A stretch of 62,858 nucleotides of DNA, the filler included, from Rhabdomonas costata (Eukaryota), in assembly GCA_019059605.1 (NCBI GenBank). It is 26 parts of 26 records of this genome, joined end to end, with 100 filler letters (N's around TTAATTAATTAA, not from the genome) between each part and the next. Parts side by side here need not be neighbours in the genome. Positions count along the whole stretch, not along the records: positions 60,540 to 62,858 come from JAHMHO010004070.1; 25 more parts are not named here. One strand, written 5' to 3'. Shown piece after piece: positions 59,601 through 62,858 of this stretch (the stretch's first letter is position 1; the number at the start of each line of letters is the position of its first letter). The notes under the pieces are model-generated. The model saw only the letters and a list, made by a program, of their open reading frames with translations. It made no database searches and was not told the origin of the DNA. Both the position numbers and the translations under genes were made by a program.

Positions 59601-60548
59601 GATCCGCCTCTGGTTTGATATGGCCCAATCAGATCACATGCTATTCGCAAAAATTAAACCAAAAATGAAAAGCTACAATTTAGCTAAAAGAGCACTATGG
59701 TCTTTCGAAGGCTTTTAAACACATGATACCACAAAACCCTGACTGTTGCTTTCCCGATGGGTACATGCACACTCGCTTCCTCCTTGAGAAGAACGGCAAT
59801 CATGTGTGTGTCACGAGTCCAGCAAATCGGCACGGTTGCGAGCAGCACAAAACTATTGTACAGCGCAGCAGCACAACATAAAGGCACGACATGAACATGA
59901 CATTCAACAGCACAGTTATGTCCCAGGAAGAACAGCTGTGAGTGACGGTGGCTCTGAGAAAGCGATGCGAGGCGAGGTAGTCAGCAGAAGCTCGGGCGTT
60001 TCCAAAGTTCGCGGGGGGGTCACTGCGGTCTCCGAGCGCTCGTCGTGGTGCTGGTGCTTCTCCTGAGATTCGGGCCGCAGAGACCCGAGCGGGGGCACAT
60101 GAGGAGAGTTGCGCTCCCCTTGGTCGCGGAGGGACAGTACTGTTTTCGAGAGGGTTCGGGAAATAGGCCTCACCTTGGGCGTCAGGGTAGACGTTGTCCG
60201 AGACCCAGCCGACCGGACCACCACTTCCTTCTCGTCCCTTGTAACCCTGGAAGACCCAGGTGGGCTGTGCTGACGGCTCTCGCTCTGTCCCAACGGGACA
60301 GGTGAAACCTCTAAGACGGAGCCATTCCCAGGTGGGGGAGTCCCTGAAGCGACGGGTCCCGTCGAAGTCGAAGATGGCCGATCGATCGATGGTGCCTGCT
60401 GCTGTGGCAGGCGCGAGAATTTGGATGAGACCACACAAANNNNNNNNNNNNNNNNNNNNNNNNNNNNNNNNNNNNNNNNNNNNTTAATTAATTAANNNNN
60501 NNNNNNNNNNNNNNNNNNNNNNNNNNNNNNNNNNNNNNNGGGTTGGTT

Positions 60549-62845
60549 GTCTAGGGCCCACGTCAGCAGGCACACCGCAGGCATCACCAAGTCCAGCGAG
60601 GCAGCCGTCTTTCGCCCTGTCGGCCGTAGCGTGCTGTTAATGACTCGATAGGGTGCTTGTCGAGTGGAATCTTCCTCCCCGGAGGTCCACCACCGGCACG
60701 TCGCTACCGCAAGCACGTCACTCGGGTACCGCTCCTGGGCCCACGTCAGGCACTGCTGAGCGAACAGTAGGGCATTCACACTGCCCGCACTGATCAGACC
60801 GTTCGCGGCAATCAGAAGCGCATCGGGCTCATTCAGAATGCCCATGTGCTTCTCCAGCATCACTCGGTAGGACTGCTCCCAGGCTTCGTCTCGAGATACC
60901 ATGGCGCCGAACGCCATCTCTATGGGATCTAAAAAGAGAAAGGGGAAACACATGCGAATTGCAACACGAAAAGACAAAGAACGAAACAGGAACTAGCAGA
61001 ATGAAGGCTCACCCGTGGTGGGAAACACCAGGCGCCGCCTTTTCTTCCACTTGAGGTAGACAACGAGGAGCACAATTGCAAGGATCCCCACGATCCCACA
61101 GAAGGAGGAGACAACGATTGTCACCACCAGCAGACCTGTCCAAAACAGCATCACCAAAGGATGGAAAAACGCAAGGCGATGCAAGGCTGAAGGCATGAGA
61201 AAGCACTAATGAAATAGTTACCAGGCTATTGTATTGTAAAAAAATGGTTGTAGGGCTTTAGAAAATAATCGGTTTTTAGGTGGGTTACTGTTTCTTCTAT
61301 TGTGTCTTATTCGTTACCCTTTGTGCCGTGTGTGCCGACTCTATCCGACGATTTTGCAATAGAGACGAAAAAGCTGGCGGACACGCAAGATAATCCGAGA
61401 ATCTTCCTCAATTATCCTGACTTCGAATAACTTCAGGGGCAACTTGAACGGACATTCAACCAAAAAAACAGAACCAGCTTTTTCGCCTCGGAAGCAAGGG
61501 AGTTCATTCAAAAAAATCAATGCGCATTTAGCACCTTGTGATGGCGCACAGATAAACGGGTTGCAGGAGAACCGCAGCGTGGTTCCGTTTGCATAGCGGC
61601 AAGCGTAGGCCGTGGTGGTATCGGTAATGATAAACGTGGCAATGTAGAAGCCCGTGCCGCAGGTCGCGGAGCATGTCCCATTGTGAAACGAGCCTTCGCA
61701 AACGGCTGTTACCCGACCCAGCATCAAGCCGAATAACGGACGAAAAAAGAACAGATCACTTCACGGCATGAAAAGACAGAATATATATATGGCTCAAGTC
61801 CATAATCGTACCCCAGGCATAAGGGCTGTCCTCCTTGCAGTCTAGCCGCCGTGCAGCGGCTGCTCGTTCTGCGAGGTGAGATGAGCTTTTGGGAGTTAGA
61901 TGGAGTTAGGGGCTTAGAGCGCGATGCTCGTGATTCCCTTGTCTTCCGGGTGTTTTTTGTTTTCTCAACAATGCCTCGACAATGGACTGTTGCTGATATT
62001 ATCAGTCTTGGTCAGGACTTATCTTCTCTGGTGGCTTTCCTGGCTTCCTTTGGGATAGTGGAGGTTCACGTTCATTGTGATTGCGGAGGTGTTTTGAAGG
62101 TTGCTGATCATTGAGATTTCAGTCCGATGCTGGAGTTGTTCAAGATTCCTCTTGCAACATGGCTTCTGCTCGTGTACTGTGGGGTACGATAATGGACTTG
62201 TGGTATATATAAAAACTTGGCTTAAGTGCATTCACCGCCCCCCCCCAACCCGCTGAAACCCGCACATGGAGAACCATGCATCGCCACCCAACACCAAATC
62301 CCCTGCAAATCCTATATCAGAATCCCAGGGGACCGTGCATAATGCGATGGTCCGTTGTGACAGGCTATCCACCTAAAAAGCGCCTGTAACGATGGAGCTG
62401 GACCTCACAGTACGCCGCAACGAGCAAAGTGGACCACAGTGGCACCAGAAACCTGAACGGAGCGAATCCAAGAAAGAGACATGCCAGTGCAAGGTGTCTT
62501 CACCCATGATGGGAGCATCAAAGGGCAATCCCAATGGTTGCCACCCAGCTCCAGGCTGAGGTTGTTCCTCGCAAACACACCCGCAGTGTCATTCCCCACC
62601 ACAAGCCCACTCAGCTGGTTCCCTGCCAGGTTCATCGTCGTCAGGTTCTGCGGAAGCCCAGACAGCACCACAGTGCCGTTGAAGAGGTTCTTTCCGAGGT
62701 TCACCGCCACCGCCGCGAGGGGCAGCGCGGTGAGGTTGGGGGTCCCCGTGAAGGTGTTGTCCGTCAGCGACAGATTCCGCAGGCCCGCTGGGGCCTGGCT
62801 GAGGTCCACGGTGCCCGTGAAGCGGCAGCCCTGCAGAGTCAGCTC
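60549..62845 (-). CDS. Type I membrane receptor: LRRs, TSP1-like module, TM helix, probable cytosolic mono-ADP-ribosyltransferase domain (both ends truncated)
   Basis: Exons 62845-62485 (LRRs plus NHWDC cap), 61705-61535 (CSATCGTG...CNPFIC), 61135-61013 (TM plus KWKKRRR), 60928-end (ATCRWWTS...PYRVINSTLR...MPAVCLLTWALD). All three introns are phase 1. Confidence 0.8.
61971..62200 (+). mobile_element. Possible Merlin/IS1595-like transposase N-terminal remnant inside an intron
   Basis: MPRQW...LVAFLASFGIV...HCDCGGVLKV then a stop. Resembles the zinc ribbon that precedes ISXO2-type DDE domains. Confidence 0.3.
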
Positions 62846-62858
62846 CTAACCACCCACC

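Follow-up and report, generated by a model that had tools for sequence, protein, structure and literature searches.

In bacteria, ADP-ribosyltransferases (ARTs) of the ARTC-type R-S-E (Arg-Ser-Glu) class are toxins. In eukaryotes, they are known as ecto-enzymes, the ARTCs being glycosylphosphatidylinositol-anchored or secreted and acting outside the cell, according to the accessible text of PMC7955679. The only published pairing of leucine-rich repeats (LRRs) with an ART-like domain found in our literature search is LRRC9, which has the order LRR-ART-LRR, is also present in Euglenozoa, and is proposed by its authors to couple detection to ADP-ribosyl signalling; its ART-like domain lies between two blocks of LRRs, has a divergent active site, and is a probable pseudo-enzyme (PMC7955679, accessible text). 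Plant LRR receptor-like kinases and Toll-like receptors share a layout of an LRR ectodomain with capping Cys motifs, a single transmembrane (TM) helix, and a cytosolic output domain. Herein, we describe a gene with this same layout in a 62,858-base stretch of DNA (the window, which is the whole stretch analysed) from the euglenid Rhabdomonas costata, in which the output domain appears to be ART-type rather than a kinase or TIR domain. The gene is spliced and truncated at its 3′ end, and we consider it fairly probable that it encodes a single-pass LRR receptor with a cytosolic ART-type output domain. An earlier note, made from the DNA itself, had proposed such a receptor, and its proposal gains support through close relatives, the 3′ end of the window gene itself lying past the contig.

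When compared with the vertebrate ARTCs (ART1, ART2.2, and ART5; Pfam family PF01129), which are the best Pfam family for the catalytic region of the relatives of this gene, the R / S-x-S / E-x-E layout appears to be common to both, and ART2.2 is among the PDB matches. Unlike in the ARTCs, the domain here comes after a TM helix and a basic stop-transfer sequence, so that it should face the cytosol, and it is accompanied by an LRR ectodomain, an extra N-terminal helical region, and an insert of ~100 residues. The ADP-ribosylating toxin turn-turn (ARTT)-like segment and catalytic strand of the bacterial proteins C3, Vis, XopAI, and SpvB align with L-S-Y-F-P-E-E-D-E-L-L-F-P-P of the family; the alignments score weakly, with a best E of 2e-4, and cover one region only. 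Bacterial R-S-E toxins and effectors (C3, Vis, XopAI, SpvB, and HopU1) are soluble and are secreted or injected, whereas an intron-bearing eukaryotic gene for a membrane protein is found here. The likeness to plant receptors extends to a plant-type LRRNT_2 cap in P0008, an R. costata paralogue. Membership in the LRRC9 type was rejected, since in P0008 the LRRs precede the Cys module, the TM helix, and the ART domain, none follow the latter, and the R/S/ExE motifs appear to be classical; the word 'transmembrane' has 0 occurrences in the accessible text of the LRRC9 paper (PMC7955679).

The gene sits on the last contig of the window, 60540–62858, on the minus strand (Table 1). The earlier note had read four separate open reading frames as one frame spliced through three phase-1 introns, and this was borne out: the joined four-exon product is 348 residues long with zero stops, and blastp aligned its residues 1–348 with residues 610–958 of P0008 in a single high-scoring segment pair (HSP) at 49% identity (E 5.9e-106), a match far beyond chance. 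P0008 has 1224 aa and is labelled as a Rhabdomonas costata protein by its source, and the R. costata proteins were predicted on the basis of transcriptome sequences, as stated in the accessible text of PMC8219788. P0008 being transcript-derived, the equivalent exons are joined in the mRNA of a paralogue. P0007 and P0016, which share the source of P0008, also span the TM-to-cytosolic junction, so the transcript check on exon joining that the note had called for came out in its favour in three transcript-derived paralogues.

The residues at the junction of intron 3, LVFPTT-DPIEMAFG, agree with P0007 (LVLPSLDALEMAFG). For intron 1, the GC donor is required for the frame and for the spacing seen in P0008, and GT(GC)/AG is the consensus stated for conventional euglenid introns in the accessible text of PMC8219788. 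Because a TTAG acceptor directly precedes exon A at 62845, the contig begins within another intron. P0008 has 609 further N-terminal residues ahead of the alignment start, and the 5′ part of the window gene is off the contig. At the other end, the limit of 60549 given previously has to be moved by nine bases, to the real contig end at 60540.

Table 1. Exons and introns of the candidate receptor gene in the order of transcription (positions in the window)
Feature	Position	Strand	Length	Splice sites and phase	Basis or remark
Upstream intron, last part	62846..62858	(-)	13 nt	AG acceptor	Reads ...GGTTAG/GAGCTG at the border with exon A
Exon A, LRR	62485..62845	(-)	361 nt		Translation; alignment to P0008 610-725
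Intron 1	61706..62484	(-)	779 nt	GC..AG, phase 1	Junction set by colinearity with P0008 (...PC-x-A-x-C...)
Exon B, six-cysteine module	61535..61705	(-)	171 nt		Translation; alignment to P0008 727-785
Intron 2	61136..61534	(-)	399 nt	GT..AG, phase 1	
Exon C, TM helix and stop-transfer	61013..61135	(-)	123 nt		Translation; Kyte-Doolittle
Intron 3	60929..61012	(-)	84 nt	GT..AG, phase 1	
Exon D, cytosolic	60540..60928	(-)	389 nt		Cut at contig end; translation (P0002)

The ectodomain and membrane helix were then assigned exon by exon. Exon A encodes the last 4–5 LRRs, an NxWxCP-type C-terminal cap, and six N-x-S/T sequons, and is colinear with P0008 at 46% identity (55/119). Exon A alone reached 18.1 bits with LRR_1 of Pfam, below the cut-off of 20.6, and it is through the paralogue P0008 that LRR profiles score above their cut-offs (LRR_4, 51.3; LRR_1, 48.5; LRR_8, 44.1; and LRRNT_2, 31.2 bits). 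The single chain of P0008 carries LRRNT_2, LRRs, the Cys module, the TM helix, and the cytosolic domain. Exon B, which is juxtamembrane, has six cysteines and the motif CSATCGTG and is 51% identical (30/59) to P0008. Exon C encodes one TM helix, with a mean of 2.9 in the best 19-residue Kyte-Doolittle window, followed by KWKKRRR. The 177 residues N-terminal of this helix have eight N-x-S/T sequons and nine Cys, which would fit a location outside the cell. No kinase or TIR match was found in any family member scanned.

The earlier note had assigned one module to each exon. The LRR, the TM helix with its basic stop-transfer, and the predicted cytosolic domain stand, but the thrombospondin type 1 (TSP1) label of exon B received no profile support. 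Pfam gave no TSP_1 match for the exon B translation (P0004) at E ≤ 10 or for P0008 at E ≤ 0.1, and a PDB sequence search with exon B returned no thrombospondin repeat (TSR) chain among 10 sequences at E ≤ 10. The TSR resemblance is limited to CSATCGTG (CSxTCGxG) and the six Cys. As there was neither a profile or TSR structure match nor a WxxW motif, identity of exon B as a TSP1 repeat (PF00090) was rejected.

The product of exon D (P0002, 130 aa) contains ATCRWWT, YRVINSTLR, and PAVCLLTWAL, which are the motifs that the note had quoted for an ART. Its helical Y-x-x-I-N-x-x-L-R part presumably resembles the N-terminal part of bacterial R-S-E ARTs, a likeness that carries no score. P0002 has no ART match of its own, and the ART assignment therefore rests on its relatives. 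When 1.84 billion representatives were searched exhaustively by phmmer with P0002, only nine relatives emerged, of which eight had E ≤ 1e-10, and word-index searches added nine further members of this family. R. costata transcriptome proteins account for six of the family members; small ENA contigs, Logan assemblies, and one JGI metagenome supplied the others. Scans of metagenome contigs and viral contigs found no relative. The family is thus small and sharply delimited, with euglenid-like sources so far.

Exon D is 86.6% identical to P0007 (82 residues), 84.4% to P0016 (128 residues), and 83.3% to P0006 (126 residues), which are paralogues or orthologues from loci different from that of the window gene. 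Identity to P0008 is 60% in the cytosolic part, against 51% in the Cys module and 46% in the LRR part, a pattern to be expected if the sensors of the family diversify while the output is shared. In the AlphaFold2 (AF2) model of P0006, the region corresponding to exon D forms six helices, with means of the predicted local distance difference test (pLDDT) of 54–92 in 10-residue blocks. The window piece modelled as a single sequence gave a pLDDT of 48.

The putative catalytic core is visible in these relatives. In P0006 and P0016, V-Y-R-V-V-P-W-L-F-P lies 14 residues past the last residue of the window gene. In the relatives, it is followed ~30 residues later by Y-D-F-R-S-A-S and, after a variable insert of ~100 residues, by L-S-Y-F-P-E-E-D-E-L-L-F-P-P. 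Every receptor-clade relative that extends further carries the core. The note had placed the catalytic residues of the window gene beyond the contig end, and the window does stop before the core; the R / S / ExE order that it expected downstream is found in P0006 and P0016, which are 83–84% identical to the window gene over the shared 126–128 residues. From these we infer that the core is present in this copy as well.

Profile searches assigned the downstream region of the relatives to the ART families. With a curated cut-off of 22.3 bits, PF01129 (ART, NAD:arginine ADP-ribosyltransferase) scored above the cut-off in P0014 (29.9), P0022 (28.0), P0019 (27.0), P0018 (23.6), and P0017 (23.3), narrowly below it in the receptor-type P0006 (22.1), P0016 (20.1), and P0008 (19.2), and lower still in P0010 (16.5) and P0023 (11.0). 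It had no match in P0012, P0013, P0015, P0020, and P0021, all of which except P0013 are without the region. Matches to PF03496 (ADPrib_exo_Tox) were weaker than those to PF01129. For further profile searches, seven family members were aligned (alignment A2), six of which match PF01129. The A2 profile returned 13 PDB sequences at E ≤ 10, led by XopAI (2e-4 and 3.5e-4), Vis (1.2e-3), and C3 (0.068). Eleven of the 13 are entries that we take, by recognition, to be R-S-E transferases or ART toxin domains (two of XopAI, Vis, three of C3, ART2.2, HopU1, two PAAR-toxins, and Lmo0066), and the remaining two are a designed protein and PA0821. HMMER placed E-D-E-L-L-F-P-P of the family on E-Q-E-V-L-F-P-P of XopAI, E-A-E-V-L-F-A-P of Vis, and Q-L-E-V-L-L-P of C3, and P0014 alone matched SpvB too. 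In NCBIfam, all eight proteins scanned matched XopAI, weakly and far below the 300-bit cut-off. Among named atlas clusters, the protein-language-model neighbours of P0006 were ART families (score 0.95). The note had named a match to a non-ART fold as a refutation; in these profile searches, the downstream region of the relatives matched Pfam ART and solved R-S-E transferases and no other enzyme family. The direct search with the exon D translation gave no ART match in Pfam, PDB, or the atlas.

To compare the catalytic residues, we used the receptor-type members P0006, P0008, P0016, P0017, P0018, P0020, P0021, P0022, and P0023, seven of which cover each site. The Arg and the E-D-E are each kept in 7/7. 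At the second motif, F-R-[S/A]-A-[S/C], three of the seven have S-A-S, another three have A-A-S, and the last has A-A-C. In the soluble paralogue P0010, Glu replaces the Arg and Gly replaces the first Glu; in the soluble P0013, Met replaces the catalytic Glu. Since the residues drift in the soluble paralogues and stay in the receptor clade, we take this pattern as indirect evidence that the receptor-clade ART domains may be active. The E-x-E form would make arginine the likely target, as judged from ARTC enzymes and from the comparison of Arg- and Asn-specific toxins.

According to the above results, a working model can be outlined for the family. An N-glycosylated LRR ectodomain and a small six-cysteine module would lie outside the cell in a type-I-like orientation, joined by one TM helix with a basic stop-transfer to the cytosolic domain, which would consist of a helical region followed by an R-S-ExE mono-ART core of the ARTC/C3/Vis/XopAI kind, as in the closest relatives. 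A ligand on the LRR ectodomain may change the oligomeric or conformational state, upon which the cytosolic ART would use cytosolic NAD+ (nicotinamide adenine dinucleotide) to mono-ADP-ribosylate itself or substrate proteins. That this euglenid family of single-pass LRR receptors signals by ligand-controlled, cytosolic, arginine-directed mono-ADP-ribosylation is a tentative proposal, which we rate as possible and somewhat short of an even chance.

Several results weigh against the proposed receptor transferase. In searches with P0002, Pfam at E ≤ 10 listed only RE_BstXI (0.06) and no ART family, the best PDB match was POT1 (0.003) with no ART chain returned, and the atlas neighbours were DUF5717 (<0.9), which is not an ART. 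In the relatives, all profile matches are confined to the ARTT-loop/ExE strand (profile positions ~156–214 of 222), and the Arg and Ser motifs were placed by order and conservation, without a scored alignment. Between the second motif and ExE lie ~135 residues, including the variable insert, and in 4/7 receptor-type members (P0008, P0017, P0020, and P0021) the second motif has Ala in place of its first Ser. The AF2 model of P0006, built from 12 sequences, has a mean pLDDT of 56, with residues 127–181 and 285–370 below 50, and none of the 110 Foldseek matches of this model in the PDB (E ≤ 10) reached E ≤ 0.001. Because structure prediction failed for the core, this fold search is uninformative. 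Furthermore, the N-terminus of P0008 is, by eye, not obviously a signal peptide, and that of the window gene is off the contig.

Two features, the replacement of Ser by Ala in the second motif and the long stretch inserted ahead of ExE, keep alive the reading that the protein is a pseudo-enzyme receptor, in which the ART fold would act without transfer as a scaffold, an NAD+/ADP-ribose sensor, or a docking module. The loss of catalytic residues in the soluble P0010 and P0013 shows that the family does yield pseudo-ARTs, and the published LRR-plus-ART family LRRC9 was judged 'most likely pseudoenzymes' (PMC7955679, accessible text). However, it is the soluble paralogues that have drifted, while the Arg and E-D-E are each intact in all seven receptor-type members that cover the site. 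The second motif itself has parallels, as active human ART1 has S-A-S together with an acidic E-x-E (accessible text of PMC7955679), and [GS]x[TSC]-type second motifs are tabulated for predicted R-S-E families in the accessible text of PMC12522546. We regard a pseudo-enzyme as unlikely.

An NAD+-consuming receptor, which would act as a glycohydrolase on activation and give TIR/SARM1-like depletion or a second-messenger output, is improbable in our judgment; the note had named NAD cleavage as an alternative to ADP-ribosylation. It shares with the receptor transferase the evidence for an NAD+-binding R-S-E site from the Pfam and PDB profile matches, and several R-S-E ARTs have NAD glycohydrolase side activity. 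On the sequence level, hydrolysis and transfer are not separated. The combination of E-x-E and an aromatic ARTT-like segment, here L-S-Y-F-P-E-E-D-E in alignment with C3 and Vis, is characteristic of protein-modifying enzymes. It is also quite improbable that this copy is truncated, degenerating, or a different paralogue without an ART core at its 3′ end, or that the protein is an adhesin and not a sensor. Only 130 cytosolic residues are visible, and the family has multiple copies, among them fragments and unusual transcripts; P0007, for example, has a duplicated TM/juxtamembrane segment. Nevertheless, the four exons that can be seen have open frames and intact splice sites, the identity of the cytosolic exon to P0007, P0016, and P0006 (83–87%) is unlike that of a decaying copy, and the core occurs in every receptor-clade relative that runs further downstream. 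Finally, a coincidental ART resemblance of a cytosolic domain with some other fold, to which the uninformative fold search and the shortness of the profile matches (~40–60 residues) might point, is highly improbable, since Pfam, PDB, NCBIfam XopAI (weakly), and the atlas return ART families and nothing else for that region, and five relatives score above the Pfam curated cut-off.

As for precedents of the proposed LRR-TM-ART receptor, no description of such a protein was found in the full-text literature searched, although the ART review by Aravind et al. 2015 may mention one; the note likewise knew of no characterised receptor built in this way. In the main text of the R. costata paper (PMC8219788), as far as accessible, the terms 'ribosyl', 'LRR', 'leucine', and 'receptor' have 0 occurrences, and its supplements may carry automatic annotations. 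The modules are known ones, in an apparently undescribed receptor architecture. To our knowledge, the writers of intracellular arginine ADP-ribosylation are poorly known, though cytosolic arginine-specific hydrolases exist. If the receptor transferase is confirmed, it would add a further class of receptor enzyme to the receptor kinases, cyclases, and TIR receptors, with an ARTC/C3-type writer inside the eukaryotic cell, neither on its surface nor as an injected toxin. It would then provide a new route from an outside signal to a covalent mark within the cell and a natural system for regulated intracellular arginine ADP-ribosylation, and it would illustrate the recruitment of a toxin-type domain into eukaryotic signalling. 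Full-length cDNAs of the family are in a public transcriptome, which makes the proposal directly testable.

Several features of individual family members were also observed. The soluble paralogues P0010, P0013, and P0015 have no TM helix and carry an N-terminal segment with repeated G-L-S-x-K-x-A-E-x-x-L-x-W-G, and at its C-terminus P0010 has a further, incomplete copy of the entire unit. In P0007 (201 aa, transcript-derived from R. costata), the basic juxtamembrane segment, together with the beginning of the cytosolic domain, occurs twice in tandem, which reflects either exons duplicated in tandem or an error in transcript assembly. For both P0020 and P0022, the longest contig listed has 4870 bp; P0020 covers the N-terminal half of the cytosolic domain and P0022 its C-terminal half, which suggests one paralogue with a split ART region, perhaps by an intron; in P0006, P0017, and P0018, unlike in P0020/P0022, the ART region is one open frame. 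The insert of P0006 between the second motif and ExE (residues ~190–285) is variable in sequence, and residues ~200–240 within the AF2 model form a small alpha/beta unit predicted with good confidence (pLDDT of 78–88 in 10-residue blocks), unlike the catalytic core.

The window is made up of 26 separate contigs of 2314–2351 bp each, with a GC content of 50–56%, linked by N44-TTAATTAATTAA-N44 spacers, so that genes on either side of a spacer are not genomic neighbours. An Rfam scan of the whole window (1–62858) gave 0 matches at gathering scores. With tblastn, the four exon translations had no significant match on the other 25 contigs, and 18 family proteins gave 0 HSPs on those contigs at E ≤ 1e-3. 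Within intron 1, an inverted repeat was found over 428 nt (61784–62211), with 32-nt arms at 61784–61815 and 62180–62211 that are 88% complementary, start/end with TATATATA, and enclose 364 nt. A search of the whole window with 25 nt of one arm, allowing ≤3 mismatches, detected no additional copy. This repeat looks like a small insertion resembling a miniature inverted-repeat transposable element.

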